Shown one piece after another: positions 2,957 to 26,856 of a stretch of DNA of 26,989 nucleotides. The notes beneath the pieces are model-generated. The model had not been told where the DNA came from. It searched no databases and saw nothing but the letters and a program-made list of their open reading frames with translations. The translations under genes and the position numbers were made by a program. The stretch is from a virus. Within the stretch, counting starts at the first letter, position 1, and each line of letters begins with the position of its first letter. Location: UHGV virus genome UHGV-0205323. The stretch is one strand, 5' to 3'.

Positions 2957-3472
2957 ATGGCAAGCAGAGGCGTAAATAAGGTGATCATTATTGGTCGCCT
3001 TGGTCACGATCCAGAAATCAGATATTCACCATCAGGAACGGCATTTGCAAACCTTACCGTTGCTACGTCAGAACAATGGCGTGATAAGCAAACTGGAGAG
3101 CAAAAGGAGCAGACGGAGTGGCACCGTGTGGTAATGAGCGGGAAACTGGCAGAAATTGCCAGCGAATATCTGCGAAAAGGCTCTGAGGTTTATCTTGAAG
3201 GCAAATTGCGGACAAGAAAATGGCAGGATCAAAGCGGACAGGATCGGTTCACTACCGAAGTCATCGTGGGCGTTGGTGGAACCATGCAAATGCTTGGTGG
3301 CAAGCAAGGAGGCAATGAACAGTCCTCACCTCAGCGAAATAACGGTCAGCAACAAAGACAGCAACCTCAGCAGCAAGGGAATCACAGCGAACCACCTATG
3401 GATTTTGACGACGATATCCCCTTTGCACCAGTAACTCTCCCCTTCCCTCGTCACGCTATTCACGCAATTTAA
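2957..3472 (+). CDS. ssb: single-stranded DNA-binding protein
   Basis: Canonical SSB N-terminal OB-fold sequence ([16 protein letters not shown]...TEWHRVV), Gly/Gln-rich linker and acidic DDDIPF tail; start overlaps stop of upstream gene. Confidence 0.9.
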
Positions 3473-3480
3473 GGACTTAC

Positions 3481-4029
3481 ATGAATCACTTAATGGTTGA
3501 CCTTGAAACAATGGGCAATGGGCCATACGCGCCAGTTATTTCTATTGGGGCGGTATTCTTTGACCCGAATACCGGAGAAACAGGAGAAGAGTTCTCGGTA
3601 AATATCTCGCTTGAGTCATCAATGCGATATCGGGCGCGTCCTGACGCTTCAACGATTTTATGGTGGCTGGAACAGAGTGAAGAAGCCAGAAAATCGCTAA
3701 CCAGCAACACTCAGGAGCTTTCAACGGCTCTTTCATGGTTATCTGAATTCATCATAAAGAACGCTAACCACAAATTCGTTCAGGTTTGGGGGAATGGAGC
3801 ATCATTTGACTGCGTTATTCTCCGAAACAGTTATTCGCTGACAGGGCAGCCAGTTCCATGGCAGTGGTGGAATGACCGCGACGTAAGAACAATCGTCGAG
3901 CTTGGAAAGGTAATAGGATTCGAACCTAAGCGAGATATGCCATTCAAAGGAACTCGCCACAACGCTCTTGATGATGCCATTCACCAAGCCAAATACGTTT
4001 CAGCGATCTGGAAAAAGTTAGCTAAATAA
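3481..4029 (+). CDS. DEDDh-type 3'-5' exonuclease (DnaQ-like)
   Basis: Exo I motif MVDLETMG, Exo II WGNGASFD, Exo III HNALDDAIHQAKY in the correct order and spacing. Confidence 0.75.
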   Translation: MNHLMVDLETMGNGPYAPVISIGAVFFDPNTGETGEEFSVNISLESSMRYRARPDASTILWWLEQSEEARKSLTSNTQELSTALSWLSEFIIKNANHKFVQVWGNGASFDCVILRNSYSLTGQPVPWQWWNDRDVRTIVELGKVIGFEPKRDMPFKGTRHNALDDAIHQAKYVSAIWKKLAK

Positions 4030-4045
4030 TCAACAGGAGAAAACC

Positions 4046-4342
4046 ATGCCAGCGCCTCTGTATAGTGCGGATGACCCGCGCCGCTGTTCCGGCAATTCCG
4101 TATCGGAGGTGCTGGATAAATTCAGGAAAAACTACGACCGGATAATGTCGCTACCGCAGGAAACGAAAGAGGAAAAGGAATTTCGCCACTGTATATGGCT
4201 TGCAGAGAAAGAAGAACGCGAGCGAATTTACCAGACATCAATCCGACCATTCCGCAAAGCCACATATACCCACTTCCCTGAATATATCGACCCGCGCCTG
4301 CGTAATTACCGCTCACGCTATGGCGCTATCAGTAATGACTGA
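4046..4342 (+). CDS. hypothetical protein (98 aa)
   Basis: ORF with AGGAGA RBS upstream of ATG 4046; no domain recognised. Confidence 0.5.
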
Positions 4343-4514
4343 GGAATTTACCATGAGAGGACTTGCATACAATCCCGGCATTCTTCCGGCAGAAATGATT
4401 ATTCGCCAACGCGTAAAGCCAATGCCATCGAGAGATGGAATTGCTTAAGAGAAATTCTTTTCCGTCAGTGAATCAAAACAAATATCTGAATGCGATGTGG
4501 CGGAGTGGGAAAAA

Positions 4515-4868
4515 ATGAAACAAATGTCACTAATTGAGATGGATGGATTTCTGAAAGGTAAATGCATACCACGAGATTTAAAGGTTAACGAAACAAACGC
4601 TGAATATCTGGTGCGTAAATTCGATGAAGTACGTGCTGAGGCTCGCAACGAGGGTATTAACTATACCGCAAGCCGTCTTGCTGCTGCGTTCAATCACGGA
4701 TTTATCAATAAGTCTTTACGTGAAGTTTTCGACGTTACGCGCATGATTCTGTCAGCGAAAGAAGAGTTGGCTAATGAACCGCATCCGATTGATGGCCTGT
4801 CCGGTGAATATGCAGAGAAATCCCTTGAAGAATGGGCGGAACGGCTTCGCAAAGGAGGCAGCCAGTGA
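4515..4868 (+). CDS. hypothetical protein (117 aa from ATG 4515; track ORF starts at 4497)
   Basis: GGAG RBS upstream of ATG 4515; stop TGA overlaps the GTG start of the downstream methyltransferase ORF (GTGA). Confidence 0.5.
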   Translation: MKQMSLIEMDGFLKGKCIPRDLKVNETNAEYLVRKFDEVRAEARNEGINYTASRLAAAFNHGFINKSLREVFDVTRMILSAKEELANEPHPIDGLSGEYAEKSLEEWAERLRKGGSQ

Positions 4869-5350
4869 CTGGACATGCAGCAATCCTCGACATGTGCTGT
4901 GGCAGTCGCATGTTCTGGTTCGATAAGAATGACGACCGGGCGATATTTAGTGATATCAGAAAGGAAGAGCACACATTGTGTGATGGACGACGCCTGATTA
5001 TCAGTCCTGACCTGATAGCTGATTTTCGTGCACTACCATTTGCAGACGCATCCTTTTCGATGGTTGTATTCGACCCTCCGCATCTTGAGCGTGTTGGTGA
5101 TAACGCTTGGATGGGAAAGAAATATGGACGGCTGAATAAAGATACCTGGCGTGATGATTTACGGCAGGGATTCAAAGAAGCCTTTCGTGTGTTGTGGCCA
5201 TACGGCGTTCTGATTTTTAAATGGAATGAAACGCAAATACCTGTTCGCCAGATATTGGCACTGACCGACAGAAAGCCTGTTATCGGTCAACGAACAGGAA
5301 AGGGTGACAAGACCCACTGGATTATTTTTATGAAGGAGGGCAACCAGTGA
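4865..5350 (+). CDS. putative SAM-dependent DNA methyltransferase (orphan, small)
   Basis: Motif I-like DMCCGSR followed about 65 residues later by DPPH (motif IV-like, as DPPY/F/W in amino-methyltransferases); likely GTG start at 4865 overlapping the upstream stop; no adjacent restriction endonuclease candidate. Confidence 0.55.
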   Translation: MTGHAAILDMCCGSRMFWFDKNDDRAIFSDIRKEEHTLCDGRRLIISPDLIADFRALPFADASFSMVVFDPPHLERVGDNAWMGKKYGRLNKDTWRDDLRQGFKEAFRVLWPYGVLIFKWNETQIPVRQILALTDRKPVIGQRTGKGDKTHWIIFMKEGNQ

Positions 5351-6096
5351 GCGAGATTGATTATCAGGCACTGCGTGAGGTGGCGGAACGTGCAATTCCA
5401 GCAATGGAACGCCTGTTAATGTTGCCAGCTGATGATGACTTGTTAAGTGAACAGGAACTTAAAGATTACGGTGTGGATATTGATGCGCTCAACGCCTTCA
5501 AATTTCTGACCGGACCAGAAACCGTGCTGGCACTGCTGGATGAACGGGAAAGAAACCTGCAATACATCAAAAGCCGCGATCAGGAGAACGAGGATATTGC
5601 GCTAACGGTAGGGAAGCTGAGAGTTGAGCTTGAGGAAGTAAAACAACACGCTGAAGAATTATCCGAAACCAAGGCTGTTCGTAACCAATGGCGGCCAGAT
5701 ATTTGCCCAATAACCGGACGTGCATTTTTCATGTGGATTGAGCATCCAACATTGGGAAATGTGCCGACATATGGTGGCCCATTAGATAGTTACACCATTC
5801 CAACAAAGGACGGTGACGGTGAGTTTTCATGTGAGCGTTACGATCATGATTTTGGCGGTTGGGTAGAAAGCGAATGTCTTGGGTTATATCTGATTGATGA
5901 TAGAGAACAATGCAGGGTCTACGAACTGGAGGAACGCGTTAAGGAACTGGATGCTCGGGAAATATCGCTCCCAGAACGTAGCAGCATGCTTCATCGAACA
6001 GATTTTCACGATGATTACCAAACGGTAATGGCATACAAAGTTTCTGAAGTCATCGCTGCAATCCGCGCCGCTGGCATTCGCATCAAAGGAGAGTGA
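5347..6096 (+). CDS. Ead/Ea22-like prophage early protein (hypothetical)
   Basis: 249-aa ORF with coiled-coil-like N-terminus resembling proteins commonly annotated Ead/Ea22-like in enterobacterial prophages; GTG start overlapping upstream TGA; AGGAGG RBS. Confidence 0.5.
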   Translation: MSEIDYQALREVAERAIPAMERLLMLPADDDLLSEQELKDYGVDIDALNAFKFLTGPETVLALLDERERNLQYIKSRDQENEDIALTVGKLRVELEEVKQHAEELSETKAVRNQWRPDICPITGRAFFMWIEHPTLGNVPTYGGPLDSYTIPTKDGDGEFSCERYDHDFGGWVESECLGLYLIDDREQCRVYELEERVKELDAREISLPERSSMLHRTDFHDDYQTVMAYKVSEVIAAIRAAGIRIKGE

Positions 6097-6097
6097 T

Positions 6098-6604
6098 ATG
6101 AGCACTATCACTAAAGAACGTATCGAATTGTTCATTAAATCCCCGCTTGAAAACGGGCTTACCCGTGGTGAACAAATGGAACTGGCACGGATTGCGCTGG
6201 CATCGCTGGAAGCAGAGCCGGTGGCGTGGAAGGTAACCTTCACGCAAATTGACCGTGAATATAACACGTTCACTGGTATGTATTCTGACAAAGCAGAAGT
6301 CGAACGGTGGGTGCGGCTGCATAAAGCATGTAATTTTCGGGCAGATATAACACCGCTTTATACCGCCAAGCCAGTTCCGGTAACTCCGGATGGTTGGATA
6401 AGCTGTAGTGATCGAATGCCGGATACCAAAACAGCCGTTCTTGTTGCCGTGGAGTTTGACAGGAAAGGTGACTGGCGAATGAAATGGGCGACTTACATCC
6501 CGGGGCATCCTGACGCTAATGATGGGTGGATAATTCCTGGTGCGTCGTGGAAACCGTCACACTGGATGCCGCTACCGGAACCGCCGGAGCAGGATGGTGA
6601 ATGA
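6098..6604 (+). CDS. DUF551-domain protein
   Basis: C-terminal region with the typical DUF551 pattern (DGWISCSDRMPD...VLVAV...HWMPLPEPP); GGAGAG RBS. Confidence 0.65.
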   Translation: MSTITKERIELFIKSPLENGLTRGEQMELARIALASLEAEPVAWKVTFTQIDREYNTFTGMYSDKAEVERWVRLHKACNFRADITPLYTAKPVPVTPDGWISCSDRMPDTKTAVLVAVEFDRKGDWRMKWATYIPGHPDANDGWIIPGASWKPSHWMPLPEPPEQDGE

Positions 6605-7016: not shown

Positions 7017-7217
7017 ATGCAACACGAACTACAGCCTGATTCACTGGTTGATTTGAAATTCATCATGGCCGATACTGGCTTCGGTAAAACCTTCATCTAC
7101 GACCGGATTAAGTCCGGCGACCTGCCAAAAGCCAAAGTTATCCACGGGCGAGCAAGATGGTTATATCGTGACCATTGTGAATTCAAAAATAAGCTCTTAA
7201 GCCGCGCCAATGGGTAA
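7017..7217 (+). CDS. xis: excisionase-like DNA-binding protein (HTH_17/AlpA-type)
   Basis: 66-aa ORF immediately upstream of the integrase; pattern ...DRIKSGDLPKAKVIHGRARWLYRD... resembles the excisionase/AlpA winged-helix family. Confidence 0.6.
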   Translation: MQHELQPDSLVDLKFIMADTGFGKTFIYDRIKSGDLPKAKVIHGRARWLYRDHCEFKNKLLSRANG

Positions 7218-7466
7218 AATAGCGGGTAAAATATTTTTCACATCTAAAAAACACCATTCTAATCAATCCCCTGCTGCGTCAAGTAGATGTCTGCAGGGGA
7301 CACCATTTATCAGTTCGCTCCCATCCGTACCAGTCCGCAAAATCCCCTGAATATCAAGCCTTCCGTAGATTCACAGTTCGTAATGGTTCGCGTCAGATCG
7401 TTGACAGCCGCACACCATGACGGGTAAAAAGTGGATAAAATAATTTTACCCACCGGATTTTTACCC
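7212..7466. repeat. cluster of GGGTAAAAW 9-mers in both orientations spanning the xis stop to the int start; candidate Int/Xis binding sites or attP arm sites
   Basis: GGGTAAAAT at 7212-7220 and 7224-7232; GGGTAAAAA 7422-7430; GGATAAAAT 7433-7441; inverted ATTTTACCC 7443-7451 and TTTTTACCC 7458-7466; an 8-bp inverted repeat TCCCCTGC/GCAGGGGA at 7267-7274 and 7293-7300 lies between the two groups. Confidence 0.55.
7401..7430 (+). promoter_or_regulatory. candidate int promoter overlapped by the GGGTAAAAW repeats
   Basis: Consensus -35 TTGACA at 7401-7406; weak -10 TAAAAA at 7425-7430 (18-bp spacer); no experimental support. Confidence 0.3.
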
Positions 7467-8624
7467 ATGCTCACTGTTAAGCAGATTGAAGCAGCAAAGC
7501 CGAAAGAAAAACCATACCGCCTTCTCGATGGTAATGGCCTGTACCTTTATGTCCCTGTATCAGGGAAAAAGGTATGGCAGCTTCGCTACAAGATTGACGG
7601 TAAGGAGAAAATCCTGACCGTCGGAAAATATCCGCTTATGACTTTGCAGGAGGCAAGGGATAAGGCATGGACTGCGAGGAAAGACATCTCGGCTGGCATC
7701 GATCCGGTAAAGGCGAAAAAGGCTTCGTCTAACAACAATTCCTTTTGTGCGATTTACAAGGAATGGTACGAGCACAAGAAGCAAGTCTGGTCAGTAGGCT
7801 ATGCAACTGAACTTGCCAAAATGTTTGATGACGACATTTTACCCATCATCGGCGGTCTTGAGATTCAGGATATTGAGCCGATGCAACTGTTGGAAGTAAT
7901 CCGCAGATTTGAAGATCGCGGTGCAATGGAGCGAGCCAACAAAGCACGCAGAAGATGCGGCGAGGTTTTCCGTTACGCTATTGTCACCGGAAGGGCTAAA
8001 TATAACCCGGCACCTGACCTTGCTGACGCCATGAAGGGATACCGCAAGAAGAACTTCCCGTTTCTTCCTGCAGACCAGATCCCGGCATTCAACAAAGCAC
8101 TGGCAACATTTTCAGGAAGTATCGTATCGCTCATTGCGACCAAAGTTTTACGCTACACAGCCCTAAGAACGAAAGAGCTTCGTTCCATGCAATGGAAGAA
8201 CGTCGATTTTGAAAACAGGATTATCACTATCGACGCCAGTGTGATGAAGGGACGCAAAATTCATGTGGTTCCGATGTCGGGCCAGGTAGTTGAACTTCTC
8301 ACTACGCTAAGCTCCATCACTAAACCAGTATCAGAGTTTGTTTTTGCCGGGCGCAACGATAAGAAGAAGCCAATCTGCGAGAACGCGGTATTGCTTGTGA
8401 TCAAACAAATCGGCTATGAGGGTCTGGAAAGCGGTCACGGATTCAGGCATGAATTCAGCACAATTATGAACGAGCACGAATGGCCTGCTGATGCTATTGA
8501 AGTGCAACTGGCACATGCCAACGGCGGATCTGTACGCGGGATTTACAACCATGCTCAGTATCTGGATAAGCGCAGAGAAATGATGCAGTGGTGGGCGGAT
8601 TGGCTTGATGAAAAGGTGGAGTGA
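7467..8624 (+). CDS. int: tyrosine integrase, P4-type (DUF4102 N-terminal domain)
   Basis: N-terminus MLTVKQIEAAKPKEKPYRLLDGNGLYLYV...WQLRY typical of P4/CP4-57-like integrases; C-terminal catalytic region with HGFRH and conserved R/H/Y context; start placed at ATG 7467 rather than the track's 7431. Confidence 0.85.
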   Translation: MLTVKQIEAAKPKEKPYRLLDGNGLYLYVPVSGKKVWQLRYKIDGKEKILTVGKYPLMTLQEARDKAWTARKDISAGIDPVKAKKASSNNNSFCAIYKEWYEHKKQVWSVGYATELAKMFDDDILPIIGGLEIQDIEPMQLLEVIRRFEDRGAMERANKARRRCGEVFRYAIVTGRAKYNPAPDLADAMKGYRKKNFPFLPADQIPAFNKALATFSGSIVSLIATKVLRYTALRTKELRSMQWKNVDFENRIITIDASVMKGRKIHVVPMSGQVVELLTTLSSITKPVSEFVFAGRNDKKKPICENAVLLVIKQIGYEGLESGHGFRHEFSTIMNEHEWPADAIEVQLAHANGGSVRGIYNHAQYLDKRREMMQWWADWLDEKVE

Positions 8625-8751: not shown

Positions 8752-10413
8752 TTACCTCCATGCAACAATTGTAACTGGTATAGTTACTGACTGACTTGTA
8801 ACTATAAGTCCTGTTGTTGTATCAACAATTCTTATTGCAAACCCGGTAGAATTATAAGTGTCGGCGTATACTTGATATTTAAAAGGAGATGGTACTGCAC
8901 CTGAATGAAAATCAGGATGTATAATTACTTTTGAGGCATAAAAACCAATTGTAACTATACCTCCCGGATTAACTGTTGTTGTCGATATATAATCCGGCGA
9001 GTTGTGTATCTTATCGTTAACCCTTATTATCTTACCATTTCCAATCATGCTAAATATAGTAAATACACCATTTGGGTCATTAAGATAAACTGTTGCATTA
9101 TCTTCTACTCTTATATGACCTGCTGTTCCGTCATCATTAAGCAAGACAGGGTTGTTAATGTAAGTTACTGAATTTCCTCGACATCTAAAATGATAAAAAT
9201 TAGGTCCGTTTGGATTAACTCTATTGAAGTGTGGATTGTTATATGTGACTACTGAAGATGATGCTACCAGTATTGATTGTGTTCCTGCTGTCATTTTTCC
9301 ATCTGTAGAATCCATCTCAAAATTTGGTGAGTCGAAAACAACCCCGGTAGAGTTTGTATCAATATGATGGAAGTAAGAGTTATAAGACCCATCATGCCCC
9401 ATATTAAAATTAATCCACTTAGACCCCTTTACACCACGAAGTCTTAGTGCAAATGCTTTGAAGTTTGCCGCATAACAGTTTATATATGTATTTTCAATTA
9501 TCTGGCCGTTACTCGAAATATCAAAACCAATTCTATTCCCATTTGCTCTGATGTTTGTAAACACATTGGAGAAGTCAGCAGGACCAGCTTTATAACCAAC
9601 ATCAAAGTAGTCTAAATACATATTAGAGAAAGTGCAGTTTACTGTCTTATTTACTCCGGTAAGATCAAGACCAGAACCAGATCCAATTGGTTGACCTCCG
9701 CTAACGGCACCCTCAACAATTAAACCTATATTTGCTATTACTGTTCCTCTTAATTCATTTCCAGATGCAGATATTCCTGAAATCCCGCTAGGTGTTTTTA
9801 TGCTTGATGTAGATAGAGAATCACCAATTAATCCAAAATTATTCTTAAGTGAAATGTTACCTTCCCATTCCCCTGGAGGAACCTTAAGGGTAATGGGAAT
9901 GCTACCAGATGCTATATAATCATTTACCGGGGAAAGATCATTACCGATAACACCAAATCCTCTTATATCTCCTAATCTTCTATAATCAGTAATAGAAATA
10001 AAATCCTGAACGGACTCCCCAGTATCGTAACAAACTAAAGATGCTCCAATATTAGACGCAAGCCTTTTTTCAAGCTGATCCGGGTCGTACTTCAGTACAT
10101 TCGGAAAATAAAACTGCTGCGCACCGTACGCATCATAAACAGCCATAGAATGGCCTTGCACGGTAACGAATTTGGCAATCTGTCCGTTATATACAGGGTA
10201 ACCAGCAGCGTTAATGATGATTGGCTGGGATACAGGAACGTGAGAGCCGTCTTCGTTCTCCACATAAACCTGAATCTGGTTTTCAGGATTTACCGGGTCA
10301 GTGTCAATTTTACCGATATAAATTTTGCCATTGGCTACGGCTTTAAAAGAACGAGCCATAGTGAAGAGTTGCGAAGGCATCGATACGATCACATTGGCTG
10401 TAATGTCTGTCAT
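8752..10413 (-). CDS. tailspike protein: P22 gp9-like N-terminal head-binding domain fused to a divergent receptor-binding domain
   Basis: N-terminal ~110 aa ([11 protein letters not shown]...[22 protein letters not shown]...[13 protein letters not shown]...VLKYDPDQ) closely matches the P22 tailspike head-binding domain as recalled; the remainder is Gly/Asn/Ser/Thr-rich and unlike P22; last gene before the int-proximal end. Confidence 0.85.
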
Positions 10414-10513: not shown

Positions 10514-11404
10514 TCAGTAGTTATGTACTGAAGGAGGTAATTCTTTATTCTTAAGTCTCATCCATGCGGAAAGATTCGCTGGTCCGTCTGGCTCATTAAT
10601 ATCAACATCTCGTGTGTGGTTTATTAAAACGTCTCTCGCCATTCCGATAACATACGAGAACTCATGACCGTAGTCGTAGCATCTTCCGGAATAGTTCGAT
10701 TGAATTTGTTTTAACGCCGGATACAGTTCGCGGAATAATGCCTGTGAACGGTTGGCATAATCCCATAACCATACAAGACTGTTTGCTTCTTTTGCAGAAA
10801 GCTCGTTGGTCTTCTTCTCTTGTTTGCCGATAAACTCGCCTTCAAGCACTACCCTGTGGATGTACTCTACGGCCAGCGGGATTTGTTCAATTGAAAGTTC
10901 ATCAATGCTGTCAATACCAAAACGCTGATGAACCATATTGTATGCATCGTCATAGCGAAGTCCTTTCTTTCCTACCAGCATGTTTACTGCATCGCGTAGC
11001 GGTGTGCGTTCAGCTACTGAAGTTTTACCGCCAATAGCCTTCCTCTCTTGTGTGGTAGTAACCATTGCGTCATATGCACGGATAACCTTCAGCGCAAAGG
11101 CTGCGCTAATCCACATGGCGTAGGAGTAAACAAGCTCCTTGCACACGTAGGTTCCACCATATCTACCTTTCTTAGAAAGGACGGGATTCTTATTCTGCAT
11201 ATCCGCAGAATTAAAAATTTCATTAATCAATTCAATAGTTTCATTTCTACGCATGAAGAAAGCTGGCTGATGTTTTTCCTCCTTTCCAGACGCTACATGA
11301 AGGTCATTAAGCGAGTAACGACCCTCTGAATCCATATGAATCTTGACGTCAGAAATGATGATGCTATTAGTGCAATTTACAGTTGACTTTGCTAAGCTTG
11401 ACAT
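10514..11404 (-). CDS. ant: antirepressor Ant with KilA-N-type N-terminal domain
   Basis: 296-aa ORF downstream of arc on the same strand; N-terminal KilA-N-like pattern ([36 protein letters not shown]); position matches the P22 immI arc-ant arrangement. Confidence 0.65.
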
Positions 11405-13323: not shown

Positions 13324-15459
13324 TTACTCCTGTGTCATTCCGCTTAGCGATGCCACAATCCCAGCCCTCGACAAACGCTGGAACTCTTCGTTTCCTAATG
13401 CATCGCGAATTGCTTTTACGGCGGCCTTATTTGCCATAAATCTGCGTTCCGCCGCCGCTAATGCGCCATCACTTGCCCCAACCTTAACTGCCTTTGTTGC
13501 CTCTTGAACAGCCTTTTCAATAGCGTAACGACCACTTCTGGTTGCGGATAATTTCGCTATCGATCCTTTTGCTATCGCATCAATTGCTCCACCTGCAGCG
13601 CCACCAACTATTGCTCCAATAACACCTCCTCCAGAGAACCCTGCGATAGCGCCAGCGGTTGGAAAAGCGCCAGACAATACGCTCTCTAAAACTGGATGAA
13701 GGCCATTCTCAAGAGTGCTAATGGCTGGCATAGAGCGCCCTGTCTGTTCAACATATCGAAGTGGCTTTGTTGCAGCTCTTGCAAGTTCTCCGTATGAACT
13801 TGTAATCCTGCCAAGTTCTGGAGAATATCGACTAATTGCCTTCACGTTTTGTGGGGTAAGAATAGTCGCGATATGCTTAATTCCAGCCTCTTCAGACTTA
13901 CCTCCGCGTACCCCTTGCGATACCGCATCTTGTAATATTGATGCAATTGCTGGCGCGCGTTCCGACTCAGGTAGGGCGCTTATTATTTTATGAAACTGAC
14001 CTGTTCCACTTTTTGCTGAGCCCTGTAACGCCTTAGAGCCATTAGTTACTAACTGATCAGTTGCAAGGTCTCTACCAAACGCTGCTTCAGCCTGTTCTTG
14101 TGCTGTAAATCTTGCTTTTGACAGATCATTAGCTTTTTGCCAGTCATCAAGAAAACCGCCATTTTGAGCCATTATGCGCATATCTTCCGTTGCTGCATCA
14201 CGAAGCTCAGCCATGCGCCTTGCCGTATTTGCCTCACCAGACCTTATATACTTCTGCTCTGCGTCAGCAAGTTTACTTCGCCATGCCTTCATGGCATCAA
14301 ACGTGATTCCTTTTTTACCAGTTTTAGCATAAGCAGATGCGAATTGTTTCATCTCAGGAGTTAGCGGCATGCCAGCCAAAATATCACCCTGAATTGTAGC
14401 GTTCAGGTTTGACATTCTGGCCTTTGCGTCAGGCATCGTGGAGCGGACGCTATCCCATGCAGCCTTTTCTGAATTTTTCATTTTATCAATACTTGCCAAA
14501 ACCCTTTGTTTTATGGCTGCACTTTTTTCTGATGCAGTTCCTGCTTCAGCCCCAAACTCATCCAATGCTGAGTTAAATTTCGACTCTATTTCACTGAATG
14601 CTTTGGTGTGTGCATCCTGTGTAATTCCGGGCTTTGACGCCAGAATCCCCTCCGCCTGAGCAAGACCACGACTACCTGATCTCATGCCAGGAGTTAATGC
14701 GTTGATATCTATTCCAGCAGTATCTGCTGCTTTTGCTATTTCGTCTGACACATTAGCTGACTGTCTGGCAATAATCTCTCTTCCTGTACCAGACTTTGCC
14801 ATTTTCGAAACATCAGCAGCGGAATTTATTGCCCCGCCACCAAGAACTTGAGGTGATTTAGAGGTTAAGATCCTTCCAGCCCCAGAAAGTATCCCCTGAG
14901 TACCAATATTGATACCACCGTTAATGGCAGCATTTTGTGCAAAATCGCCCTCCTGATTTGCAGCATCAGCAAGAGAACCGGCAATCATGTTTCCTGCGGA
15001 ACCGATATCTCCAGCGAGCTTTGCTGTCGCTCCAGCAGCTTTTGCCGCTGTGCCAATTGGCAGGAGATACCCACCAATTGTTTCACCGGCTTGCGCATAA
15101 GGGTCTGTCGGTCTGTCTACTGGACGATAAACATCATCCAAAACCTTGGGTCCACCAAGCCCCTGACTGATTGCATTAATCAGACTTGCGCCGCCCTGCA
15201 ATACGTCAAATGGTATGTTTACCAGACCACGACCAGCCTGTTCTGCAATTTGCCCTGCACTTTGACCACCAGTGAGCCAATCGCCAGCTTGTTGCATCAA
15301 TGATGGTTCTTCCCGTGTTGGTGCATTATTGGCCTGATTAACTGTTTGTTGCTGAACAGCCTGACCAGCAAAATACTCATCAATGGCGGTGCCAATATCT
15401 TCCGTGCTCGTACCATCAGGGAAGGTAAATGTCTTACCGTTTGCAGTTACTTTCATCAT
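13324..15459 (-). CDS. ejection (internal virion) protein, P22 gp16-like
   Basis: 711-aa Ala/Gly-rich protein in the position of P22 gene 16 after gp7 and gp20; start overlaps the gp20 stop; assignment by synteny and composition. Confidence 0.65.
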
Positions 15460-23190: not shown

Positions 23191-25356
23191 TTATTGAGGT
23201 GTCTCGGCTACTCCGCCGGAGGGGATTTGAACTTGACGCATAAGATTCGCGAAATCCATGCGTTGTGAATGAGTCTGGTCTGCATCTTTAAGAAGCAGCT
23301 CAGCGTTAGCACGAGCATCTTTGCTGCGCTGTTGCTGGAATTGACCTACGAGCTTGAGGTACTCACGCAGTTCTGCCTGCTTGTCGAGGTCCATATTGTT
23401 GAAGATTTCCGCAATCTTCGCGGCGTTGAGTTGGTTTTGGGCTTCAACCTTGGCGGCTTCAACCTGAATCTGCGCCTGTTGGTTCTCTGCCTTGAGCAAT
23501 TCAGCCTGACCTTGCAGAAGGATACCCTGCGCCTGAATTTGCTCTGCTGATGGCTGCTGCGGCTGCTGTTGAGCCTGCTGTACCATCTCCATCTCTTCAG
23601 GTGTTTCTGGCTTCTTCAGCCCCATCATCACCAGTTGCTTGTTCGCGTACTCTCGCATCATCTCGACGCCTTTACCGTCAAGCAACGTGAAGTATTGCAG
23701 CATCAGCATCTGGAACTCTGGAGTACCTTGCGGAACCTTGGTGAGCAACTCCTGAATCTCTGCGCGATTCTGTTCCTTCATGCTCTGGAAGGATGGCCCA
23801 ACGTCTGTATAGCACTCATAGCGACCGCGAATGTCGTTGAGTGTTACCACATTGCCGGACTGGTAATCGACAACTTGCGCATAGAGTTGAACGTCTTTCT
23901 CGCTTCCATCTTCAAGTGTCAGCGTTACATGACGAGGAACGTCATAAATATCGTTGACCATTGAGGCATAAATCTCGCCATCACGTCGCATTGCGGTAGC
24001 CAGGTTATCCTGAAACACGTATGTCTCAAGGTCTGCCCGCATGTTCAGTTGATTGACGGTATCGAAAGCGACCTGAGAGTTTGCTGCCTGCGCATCCACA
24101 CCAAGACTAGCCACCTCTTTCACTGCGTTGGTGGCAGCCTCAAGCATGTAAGCGTTGGCTTGCGGCACTTCAGGATTTTCCATGTAGGAGATTGGACCAA
24201 TCGGCAGGTCGTTACCGTTTTCATCGGTCTTGTTCTGCAGATAGTACGGATAGTCATCATTTCCACCGTACATGTATTCGTAGCCTTCGATTTGCTCAGG
24301 GAAGAAGGTCGGTTTCTTCTTCGGTGAACGAGCAACAATATCGGCGTTGAATGACATGATCATGTTACGAAGGCGCTGACCGTCTTTCGTCAGCCTTACC
24401 ACTCCTTCGTAGCACTCCTTGTCACCAGCGAATGACCATTCGCCATACACTGGAACGATTGGAATATGCTCTCCGGCTATCTTCTCGCGGTCTTTCAGTA
24501 TCTGCGTGCAGGTGATGATCGACTTATACACACGCCGACGCTTCACCTTGCGCTCTGCTACCTTAATGAATCCACGATTAGCCAGGTCGTCGATGACGTC
24601 TTTGATATCCTGCTGGTAATAGCTGACCGGCTCACCTGTCAGCGGGTCGCGGTAGATGAAGACTTTCTCTTTCTTCTCTTCTACCTCGTAATACTCAGCG
24701 ACGTAGACGACATCATTCGATACCCACGGAAACAGCCATGTGTCGTTCGGATTCTGGAAAGATGGCAGGGTGTCAGGATCAATACCGTAATCCTCTGCGA
24801 ACTCTTTCCAGCCATTGCGTGACAAAGCGTTAATCACCGTGCAGTGCTTAGCGTCGCTCTTATCCATCTGCTTGCTGTTGGCGTCCCATATGACGTGTGA
24901 GCAGGCTTCATGAATTGGCAGGCGTCGAATTACCTGATTGTTGCTTGTTGGATCGTTGTCTTCGTACTGCGTGACCAGACGCCATGCACCAACGCCTGAC
25001 TCTATCTGCTCACGAACGCCAACGTTAACGGCAATTTTTGCCGTATTATGGCGCATATCAGTACGATACATCCCCATCAGCACATCGGCAGCATCAGGAT
25101 TAGCGCCGTCTTTTGGTCTGAAGAGAACATCGATAGGGTTCCTGCGCATCTCTGCGACCAGCTTCCTGACCACCGGGCGAACAACATCGAATTGTCCGCG
25201 ATATTGCAGGGTGGTGTAGTTTGATAGCCAGTCATCCCATTGCGACACTCGGCTAAAATACAGGTCATTTGTCGCCTCGGTTCTGGCTTCATCGCTCGCC
25301 ATCCAGTCTGCGTCAAACTTACACAGAATGGAATTGAGTCTGTTTTCGTCGGCCAT
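23191..25356 (-). CDS. portal protein, P22 gp1-like
   Basis: 721-aa protein between terminase large subunit and scaffold; size and Gln-rich C-terminal barrel-like tail consistent with P22 portal. Confidence 0.9.
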
Positions 25357-26856
25357 TTAAGTTCTCCGTGCGATGGGCCTGATTGGGGCTGGTATCTTTT
25401 TCTCTTTTGGCTTTTTGATGTCGCGCATCATTTTTGCGAAGCGGCGCATCATGTATGCATAGCGAACGGCGGATAGCACGTCGTCGTTAAGCTTGACGAT
25501 TTTCCCGTTTTCATCACGGTGATAGAGGCGGAACTCCTCAAAGAATGGCTCACAGGTGTTGAATACTTTGAAGCGACCGTCGAGCATCATGTCTCGCAAT
25601 TCAGTGATGCCAGGCTCAACAGCGTTACCGCCATCAGGCCATGTCGCATGCTCCTGCAACATCATAAATCCAGCGTCCGCATACTGCCCTTTGAGCTGCT
25701 CACCGCCGCCCTTCTCGTGCTGGTTTCCGTCATGAGGCCATGCGGTTGGCACTTTATGCGCCCATGGTTTAACAGCTCCCCACGCCTGAACGGCTGTCTT
25801 TTCTTTCGCCTTCCAAACGCGTGAAAGGTAGATTATGTCTGCGTCCTTATCCCACCAAAGCTGAACCTGCGCCTGCGGGTGATCCCATCCGAAATCCATA
25901 CCGCCAATTACGTAGAAGTGATCAGGACACTCGAACGGCTGACACTTAATCGTCTCTTCCGGTATCTGGAAGATTCGACCACTACCCATCGTAGGAATAC
26001 CGCGAGCTCGAGCCTCTCTCTCATGCTCTGGATAGGATGCGATGATTTGCTCTTTCTGCTCATCGGTATAGTGCTCAGCGTCATAGATGGTCATGTTGAC
26101 CACTTTCTGCGACTTGCTGGGATTCTTCAGGAACTTGGTAACAACGTCAGACATCCCCATCAGCGGGGTAAACGTCAGAATTGAGAATTGCCCGTATTTG
26201 TTGGTACGGGTAAGACCTTCGCCATAAATGCTGTATGGTGGCTCTTCGTCAAACCACACGCCGTGGATTGTATCACCCTGCCAGCGAGCACGGCCTTGCG
26301 AGTATGGTTTGAAGTAGCAGATTGAAATGCCATCTTCAACGCCATCTGCCGTGTGATGCTTAACCAGAAGGTGATCAACAAGGTTCGGAAAGAAAGGAGA
26401 CTTCTTCCAGCTAATGATGTCCTCTTTCGGTATTGAACCGTAGCCCGGCTCATCATTCTCTTCAATACGACCGCACAGGATGCGTTGAGTCGTTTTGGTT
26501 ACCGTCTCGTTTGTCTCGCCGCCAATCCAGAAGACAACAGGCTCATAGAAACGCTTACCTTTCCACTCCCCACCATATTTACCATCAGCCGGATAGCCTT
26601 TTGTTCCCGGATAACGCCCGGTAAGGTGAAACGCGACTTCAGCAGCCCCAGTAAATGACTTACCAAGCTGGTTACCAGCCATAAAACAGCGCTCTGGATA
26701 GTCATGCCCGGCGTCGATGAACTCACGCTGTTTGCTGTATGGCGTAAATTCATATAGCAGGTGTGTGTTCCGGTAGTTCTCTTCTTCTTCGAGTAGCTCG
26801 AGCAATTCGATTTGCTCTTCGTCGCTCAGGTTATCAAGAATCGCGTCCAGTTCCAC
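25357..26856 (-). CDS. terminase large subunit, P22 gp2-like
   Basis: 499-aa protein with Walker A-like GNQLGKS near the N-terminus; position upstream of portal; GTG start with AAGGAG RBS. Confidence 0.9.

Follow-up and report, generated by a model that had tools for sequence, protein, structure and literature searches.

What does a methyltransferase (MTase) of only 161 residues methylate when it lies among the early genes of a phage, with no restriction endonuclease beside it? The question is raised by a gene at positions 4865..5350 (plus strand) of the UHGV virus genome UHGV-0205323, which we analyzed over a stretch of 26,989 nucleotides (herein the window). An original prediction, made from the letters alone, took the product for an orphan phage DNA MTase serving as an anti-restriction device. 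What stands of it is a small, single-domain class I enzyme that depends on S-adenosylmethionine (SAM), carries a motif IV, and is an amino-MTase; DNA as its substrate is supported indirectly, by homology to the DNA MTase YhdJ, by the gene neighborhood, by a shared accessory domain, and by PADLOC models. On this evidence we consider it probable that the gene encodes an early, stand-alone DNA amino-MTase that protects phage DNA from restriction.

The reading frame runs from a GTG at 4865-4867 to a TGA at 5348-5350, in the sequence as in the list of open reading frames (ORFs). The frame of about 160 amino acids (aa) that had been predicted, with the elements DMCCGSR and DPPH, was confirmed; it has 161 codons plus TGA, and the two elements lie at residues 9-15 and 70-73. 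The former, D9-M-C-C-G-S-R15 (4889..4909, plus strand), is motif I, the SAM-binding loop after strand β1. In an alignment of 40 family members that are 40 to 60% identical to the query (A1), D9 and C12 are invariant and G13 is at least 90% conserved, and the dominant form of the motif in the family is D-x-C-C-G-[SG]-[RK]. D30-I-R32 (4952..4960, plus strand) closes strand β2, modeled at residues 26-30; D30 and R32 are both invariant in A1, and D30 presumably stands where motif II is expected, with its acidic residue that contacts the ribose of SAM in class I enzymes. Motif IV, D70-P-P-H73 (5072..5083, plus strand), follows a strand at 64-69 at the end of β4; it is invariant in A1, and DPPH is present in 254 of the 268 homologs collected. 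The complete set of invariant positions comprises D9, C12, D30, R32, P48, D70, P71, P72, H73, E105, R108, G114, K119, W120, and P138, and conservation in the family begins at about residue 5. A DPP-type motif IV is the catalytic motif of MTases acting on exocyclic or amide amino groups. The protein thus unites the seven-stranded β-sheet fold, the glycine-containing motif I loop, and the acidic residue at the end of β2 that define class I SAM-dependent MTases with the (D/N/S)-P-P-(Y/F/W/H) at the C-terminal end of β4 that defines amino-group MTases.

The strongest pointer toward DNA is the catalytic half, residues 40-153 (4982..5323, plus strand), which is homologous to the N-terminal catalytic half of the β-class N6-adenine/N4-cytosine DNA MTases and takes in the strand before motif IV, DPPH, a KYG loop, W95, E105-x-x-R108-V-L, G114, and FKW. 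The original prediction had proposed a profile search against DNA and rRNA MTase families as a check. We compared the A1 family profile by hhalign with five Escherichia coli enzymes that carry (D/N)PP(Y/F): the DNA N6-methyladenine (m6A) MTase YhdJ (PF01555) scored 93.6% (P=2e-7), against 1.6% for RsmD (16S rRNA N2-methylguanine, m2G), 1.1% for PrmC (release-factor glutamine), 1.2% for TrmN6 (tRNA m6A), and 0.7% for RlmL (PF01170; 23S rRNA m2G). The YhdJ alignment, 103 columns long, pairs residues 40-153 with YhdJ 12-124; it covers the strand ahead of motif IV, DPPH/DPPY, and the W...E..RVLkpgG block with the strand after it. Among DPPY-type families, PF01555 is also the commonest source of weak, sub-threshold Pfam matches, found in 18 of the 40 members (best E=0.0012) vs. 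4 of 40 for UPF0020 and 1 of 40 for Cons_hypoth95 (the RsmD family). The window protein itself has no match to PF01555 at E≤1 and so stays below the β-class Pfam threshold.

The SAM-binding half is less easily placed. Taken alone, the N-terminal 45 residues pick out the YhdJ motif I, VLDPFAGS, at 0.25% probability, which is not significant, and the correspondence in position between the two motifs I is suggestive only. An attempt to demonstrate a full circular permutation relative to PF01555 did not succeed, a permuted YhdJ giving no extension of the alignment into the N-terminal part: the position is right, and the statistics are unsupportive. β-Class enzymes are defined by the order IV-target-recognition domain (TRD)-I and γ-class enzymes by I-IV-TRD (PMC7544214). 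In the small MTase motif I (residues 9-15) precedes motif IV (residues 70-73), which is not the order of the β class. The order agrees with that of the γ class, from which the protein departs in lacking a C-terminal TRD after motif VIII. Judged by its sequence, the family is best described as a catalytic half of β-class ancestry in the order I then IV, TRD-less, and a member of neither class. Relative to the PF01555 enzymes (YhdJ, M.EcoGII, M.EcoGI), the likeness thus lies in the catalytic half; they are 294 to 349 aa long with the order IV-TRD-I, whereas the small MTase has 161 aa, and it has His where they have Tyr in motif IV and DxCCGS where they have DPFxGSG in motif I.

Sequence databases already hold the gene and its family, in RefSeq (including near-identical proteins), in PHROGs, and in PADLOC. 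The product matches phrog_954, "DNA methyltransferase", with E=4.6e-88 over residues 3-160; PADLOC PDLC03288 (MTase_II, "Type II methyltransferase") with E=5e-74, residues 6-160 on profile positions 3-164 of 169; and PADLOC PDLC03730 (oMTase, "orphan methyltransferase") with E=9.5e-50 from end to end. These restriction-modification and orphan-MTase models derive from REBASE sequences. The family is large, with at least 7985 clusters at 90% identity and 2021 cluster representatives at 50% identity (E≤1e-3). Among 5426 complete E. coli genomes, 80% or more of positions 4700-5500, an 801-bp stretch made up of the MTase gene and 150 to 165 nt on either side, is present in at least 315. A tblastn search returned 256 phage records, mostly of temperate phages, with full-length matches of 45 to 65% identity, from hosts including Streptococcus, Vibrio, Acinetobacter, Porphyromonas, Listeria (A118 ORF50), Gordonia, Lactobacillus, Enterococcus, and Staphylococcus. 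Some relatives reach 200 to 320 aa; their N-terminal extensions are mutually unrelated and probably reflect upstream in-frame starts or fusions, so the unit of the family is a core of about 155 residues.

The genomic company kept by the family also points to DNA. The recombination/replication module houses the gene in all phages examined: in A118 the order is RecE-RecT-DnaD-MTase-DUF1642, with SSB in the same module, in a Porphyromonas phage it is primase-MTase, and in a Gordonia phage RecT precedes the MTase at some distance. A C5 cytosine DNA MTase of 500 to 717 aa directly adjoins the small MTase in Pectobacterium ZF40, Gordonia Eviarto, and Akkermansia Chantilly, and a C5 DNA MTase does so in 13 of 80 IMG/VR loci. 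Citrobacter phage phiNP instead has a Dam-family MTase (PF05869) in that slot, upstream of its own C5 MTase, which shows 61% identity to ZF40 gp21. A further connection is an accessory domain: in variants of 248 aa (e.g., P0011) the small MTase has an additional C-terminal domain of about 85 aa, phrog_16025, with 43% identity (E=1e-15) to the C-terminal domains of the phiNP Dam protein and of Sb44, a Dam-family protein of Salmonella phage ST64B. Wherever phrog_16025 is found it lies just upstream of a ZF40 gp21-like C5 MTase of 575 to 764 aa, whether fused to the small MTase (8 of the 9 such cases), fused to the PF05869 Dam, or free-standing, and it might serve the C5 enzyme as an adaptor or regulator. 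That two unrelated catalytic domains use one slot and one accessory domain argues for a process shared by both, namely DNA methylation. The domain was seen in loci L002, L021, L027, L030, L031, L036, L043, L045, L046, and L048, and further in L050, L051, L066, L073, L092, and L093. The window has neither a C5 MTase nor the accessory domain, and its MTase stands alone. More generally, no partner gene is obligatory, the immediate neighbors in 85 loci forming many small clusters, and the small MTase is therefore regarded as a stand-alone enzyme. One such neighbor, immediately beside the gene in 8 of the 85 loci (e.g., L038, 4468-4695), is a 75-aa protein with four cysteines (CxxC...CxxC); this zinc-finger-like protein resembles TraR/DksA by eye and does not accompany the MTase in the window.

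An AlphaFold2 model built on the A1 alignment is confident, with a predicted local distance difference test score (pLDDT) of 93.8 and a predicted template-modeling (TM) score of 0.89. It has strands at residues 7-9, 26-30, 64-69, 110-121, and 150-156, a hairpin at 34-37/43-46, and only three helices (82-87, 95-109, and 127-131).

A number of results, from the model and elsewhere, weigh against an anti-restriction DNA MTase. In the model the SAM-binding half (residues 1-80; 4865-5104) is free of helices, αA to αC being absent, and the chain ends four residues past the last strand, which leaves no TRD; a TRD-less enzyme with such a helix-poor half would be unusual for an active, stand-alone DNA MTase. 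As modeled, one face of the sheet would be exposed, and dimerization or a partner might cover it. Structure searches are led by small-molecule and RNA MTases, with PH0226 ahead of Trm11, Bud23, and nucleomethylin, the three that top the Foldseek list at TM scores of 0.45 to 0.6; the top Foldseek matches are Trm112-dependent enzymes, and M.TaqI comes only at rank 17 (TMq 0.45). A search of Protein Data Bank (PDB) sequences with the family profile returned no DNA MTase and a Trm11 match at E=0.3; the corresponding single-sequence search gave the β-class enzyme 2zie at E=1.3, aligned over the catalytic region. Names are no more specific. RefSeq calls the protein a "class I SAM-dependent methyltransferase", no curated DNA-MTase model in Pfam or NCBIfam reaches threshold, and the best Pfam matches are the generic Methyltransf_11/25, sub-threshold for the window protein, with NCBIfam likewise. 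A clear assignment to an RNA or small-molecule MTase family, on which the original prediction had staked its refutation, was not obtained from these generic Pfam matches. A literature search found no experiment or biochemical characterization for any family member, and the statement that A118 ORF50 "methylates cytosine" is an annotation without a test behind it. Finally, identities of 45 to 65% across phages of Firmicutes, Actinobacteria, Bacteroidetes, and Proteobacteria, and hence of Gram-positive and Gram-negative hosts, are more in keeping with a universal substrate than with sequence-specific anti-restriction methylation. Small size, the missing TRD, the invariant histidine of motif IV, the helix-poor SAM half, and this cross-phylum conservation are the unusual points of the family; a literature search for "DPPH" as a motif IV found nothing.

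Might the substrate then be something other than DNA? An amino-MTase acting on RNA (tRNA or rRNA) or on another universally conserved host molecule could tune translation or shield tRNA from a defense nuclease. Such an enzyme would typically show motif I before motif IV with no DNA-recognition domain, as here, and the conservation across phyla is very high for a 155-aa protein; moreover, (D/N)PP(Y/F/H) also occurs in m2G, m6A-RNA, and glutamine-N5 enzymes (PMC3299994, PMC7544214), and the phage amino-MTase M.EcoGII methylates RNA as well (PMC5778455). We nevertheless judge a non-DNA target to be quite unlikely, given the gulf between YhdJ and the four non-DNA enzymes in the profile comparison, the lack of an RNA-binding module (THUMP, PUA) in the protein, and the repeated adjacency or fusion of the gene to DNA-MTase components. 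The fold rankings do not settle the substrate: they rest on low TM scores (0.5 to 0.6), and sequential structural aligners probably under-rank the circularly permuted β-class DNA MTases. It is very improbable, in turn, that the protein is a catalytically inactive SAM binder, acting for example as a sink for SAM or as a regulatory subunit for some other MTase. Thousands of sequences keep DPPH and the SAM-contacting acids D9, D30, and D53 unchanged or almost unchanged, as expected for active enzymes, and most loci, the window included, lack a C5 MTase or any other conserved partner; these facts outweigh, in our view, the reduced and predicted helix-free SAM half, the Cys-Cys in motif I where Phe-x is usual, the fusion in some phages to an accessory domain invariably encoded ahead of a large C5 MTase, and the dependence of the Foldseek neighbors on the partner Trm112.

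A DNA MTase whose main job is something other than site-specific anti-restriction is a subtler alternative, which partly overlaps the reading that we prefer and which we hold to be unlikely as a separate explanation. It could take the form of a nonspecific methylase, or one directed to structures such as single-stranded DNA (ssDNA) and replication or recombination intermediates, coupled to the Erf/SSB/exonuclease module, or else that of an epigenetic regulator of phage or host genes. The absence of a TRD suits it, as does the position beside ssDNA-annealing proteins or SSB (Erf-SSB-exo-Abc2 here, RecE/RecT/SSB in A118, RecT in the Gordonia phage), although this company may simply mirror the general clustering of early genes, and the immediate neighbors vary. 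There are precedents: the ssDNA-specific β-class enzymes M.EcoGIX and M.BceJIII are encoded alongside ssb and anti-defense genes in plasmid leading regions (PMC7736820), the nonspecific M.EcoGII works on ssDNA (PMC5778455), and PamA, a 141-aa phage adenine MTase, rewires host expression (PMC12435837). A Dam-type MTase also co-occurs with the small MTase in locus L073, suggesting activities that are not redundant. Against this, a preference of the small MTase for ssDNA has no direct evidence, and nonspecific methylation would itself be anti-restriction.

If the gene does encode an anti-restriction DNA MTase, a mechanism can be proposed. A single-domain enzyme of 18 to 19 kDa would be made early in lytic growth from the PL-type operon, translationally coupled to its neighbors. 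Its N-terminal 60 or so residues would hold SAM by motif I (D9xCCGS), by D30 where β2 ends, and by D53-F54; D70-P-P-H73 at the end of β4 would keep the exocyclic NH2 of a flipped-out base aligned with the methyl group of SAM. The base would more likely be adenine (N6) than cytosine (N4), given that motif IV begins with Asp and that the family is related to m6A enzymes (established motif statistics). As a TRD is absent, recognition would fall to the short, length-variable hairpin 33-47 and the conserved loop 74-95 after DPPH, possibly in a homodimer, as in β-class enzymes (PMC7544214). Specificity would be expected to be very short, degenerate, or absent; the original prediction had treated the target sequence as something still to be found, and without a TRD there may be no target sequence in the usual sense. 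Methylated as it replicates, phage DNA would yield progeny that resist restriction in the next host. In the lysogen the operon would be repressed and the gene silent, which would avoid toxicity, as argued for M.EcoGII (PMC5778455). The analysis establishes the gene, its fold and motifs, the remote homology to DNA amino-MTases, the orphan status, and the genomic associations; DNA as the substrate, the base, the low specificity, the dimer, and the anti-restriction role are what we infer. Prophage-encoded, lysogen-silent, low-specificity adenine MTases have precedents in M.EcoGII (PMC5778455) and Hia5 (PMC3299994).

A bolder proposal, which we put forward tentatively as possible and no better than that, is that the family is a distinct class of nucleic-acid amino-MTases: TRD-less, about 155 residues long, with motif I before motif IV, a β-like catalytic half, and DPPH. 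Members would methylate adenine (or cytosine) nonspecifically or by structure, recognizing ssDNA or replication and recombination intermediates instead of a sequence. Such a class, if real, would explain conservation at 45 to 65% identity across phages of different phyla. To our knowledge, the enzyme would then rank among the smallest DNA MTases.

Comparison with known orphan MTases places these ideas in context. M.EcoGII is likewise prophage-borne and orphan, and is lysogen-silent and of low specificity (PMC5778455), two properties that for the small MTase we infer. The Hia5/Hin1523/Nma1821 group, also prophage-encoded orphan amino-MTases, gives generalized protection from restriction (PMC3299994) and is the functional analog for a low-specificity enzyme; its members differ in having 281 aa, a Dam-related α-class order (I-TRD-IV), DPPY, a recognizable if divergent TRD region, and experimentally shown activity. 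M.EcoGIX and M.BceJIII, the analogs for an enzyme acting on ssDNA intermediates, are orphan amino-MTases among ssb and anti-defense genes that are expressed as DNA enters or replicates (PMC7736820); they are β-class DPPY enzymes of plasmid leading regions and are not homologous at the level tested. Identity of the small MTase with any of these was rejected, M.EcoGIX being a different, plasmid-borne β-class DPPY protein and M.EcoGI/GII different β-class proteins of 349 aa. REBASE-based MTase inventories of strain EC958 (ST131) and two O111 Shiga toxin-producing E. coli strains list nothing recognizable as the small MTase, whose presence in those genomes was not checked.

The closest parallel in setting is the phage Dam family PF05869 (ST64B Sb44, phiNP "mtase"), likewise made up of small orphan phage MTases in the replication/early region, with the same slot just upstream of a ZF40 gp21-like C5 MTase and the shared phrog_16025 domain. 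Their catalytic domains have no detectable sequence similarity to the small MTase, and PF05869 has characterized GATC-specific members, whereas no specificity is assigned to any member of the small-MTase family. T1 Dam and M.EcoVT2Dam belong to PF05869. M.EcoVT2Dam is listed with GATC (PMC6602927). Staphylococcus aureus PamA, possibly of the same family, has 141 aa with NPPY at 64-67 (PMC12435837). Among RNA enzymes, RlmL was remote in the profile comparison and Trm11 gave the insignificant PDB match noted above. Trm11, Trm14, and RlmL (PF01170) and the other Trm112-dependent MTases forming m2G or N7-methylguanine have THUMP or other RNA-binding domains or need Trm112.

The boundaries of the gene bear on both its expression and its mobility. 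Upstream lies a 123-aa gene (4497..4868, plus strand; phrog_614), an ead/Ea22-like family protein in RefSeq with no Pfam or PADLOC match, whose TGA at 4866-4868 overlaps the GTG start of the MTase in a 4-nt GTGA; downstream, a 249-aa Ead/Ea22-like gene (5347..6096, plus strand; PF13935 Ead_Ea22, E=1.2e-28) has its GTG at 5347-5349 across the MTase stop, forming a second GTGA. Each junction has a Shine-Dalgarno AGGAGG, read from the sequence on the plus strand: one at 4853..4858, 6 nt before the GTG of the MTase, the other at 5334..5339, within the 3′ end of the MTase gene and 7 nt before the GTG of the next. To judge by these elements, each overlap is a classical translational-coupling arrangement. 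The overlaps claimed at 4865-4868 and 5347-5350 were therefore found as predicted, and so was the tight coupling in a chain of early genes, the 4-nt start/stop overlaps lying in a tightly packed early (PL-type) operon. The orphan status likewise held: both flanking genes are Ead/Ea22-like, no restriction endonuclease adjoins the MTase, and neither flank has a PADLOC match, making it an orphan within the window. The start is well placed. P0001, a 99%-identical database protein (161 aa, 271 member sequences), begins at the GTG, whereas an alternative in-frame ATG at 4832 was rejected, since it has no Shine-Dalgarno, homologs use the GTG, and conservation begins only at about residue 5. Antisense ORFs at 4694..4972 and 4771..5175 are unsupported and were taken as spurious.

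The junctions at 4853-4868 and 5334-5350 are nearly alike, both reading AGGAGG-N6/7-GTGA (…AGGAGGCAGCCAGTGA / AGGAGGGCAACCAGTGA). Megablast matches in other E. coli genomes end about 20 to 30 bp past the MTase stop, within the conserved N terminus of the Ea22-like gene, and the MTase gene therefore behaves as a mosaic cassette between conserved Ea22-like segments, with the two AGGAGG-N6/7-GTGA junctions looking like points of mosaic exchange. The cassette has no compositional anomaly, its GC content of 0.47 to 0.49 being the same as that of the flanks. A 279-aa database protein, P0002, fuses the MTase in frame to an Ea22-like N terminus, as if by read-through or frameshift at the GTGA overlap; it has one cluster member only and is probably a sequencing or assembly artifact.

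The window is a P22-like E. coli phage genome in the unintegrated (attP) arrangement with no prophage-host junction, since the integrase is followed by minus-strand P22-like virion genes without host DNA. Lederbergvirus-like phages of E. coli give its nearest records, with coverage of about 55%, and the main ORFs, as scanned, are ordinary P22-like early and virion genes, the window being part of a whole phage genome. The MTase is an accessory gene of the leftward early (PL-type) operon, in the "ea" region. On the plus strand, the genes noted before it are an N-like antiterminator (114-413), a 212-aa Nmad5-family protein (410-1048; PF18757, E=6.4e-71), Erf (2249-2956), SSB (2957-3472), a 3′-5′ exonuclease (3481-4029), and Abc2 anti-RecBCD (4046-4342); past the second Ea22-like gene come a DUF551 protein (6098-6604), a TorI-like excisionase (xis; 7017-7217), and an IntS-type integrase (int; 7431-8624). 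The minus strand carries the tailspike (8752-10413), an Ant-like gene (10514-11404), one of several DNA-transfer proteins (13324-15459), the portal (23191-25356), and the large terminase (25357-26856). The Nmad5 ("nucleotide modification associated domain 5") gene directly follows the antiterminator in the same early operon as the MTase; a related prophage has a frameshifted Nmad5 gene and no MTase, so neither gene requires the presence of the other. The roughly 150 nt that separate abc2 from the gene after it (4343-4496) hold only short ORFs (31 and 27 aa) and may be a remnant, since a related prophage carries a 54-aa DUF2737 gene at this site.

The MTase is, in sum, an ordinary, catalogued gene with an unusually minimal architecture, and as a common phage accessory gene it changes genome annotation little. 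Should the minimal enzyme prove active on DNA without sequence specificity, a gene found in at least 7985 clusters at 90% identity would gain a function, one that together with its flanks is covered to 80% or more in no fewer than 315 of the 5426 E. coli genomes, and part of the restriction resistance of temperate phages would be explained. If the substrate is not DNA, the widespread labels "DNA methyltransferase" and Type II MTase would need correction. If the enzyme acts on DNA without specificity, a 155-residue adenine methylase would offer a compact alternative to M.EcoGII and Hia5 for methylation-footprinting fusions and would show how far a DNA methyltransferase can be stripped down.

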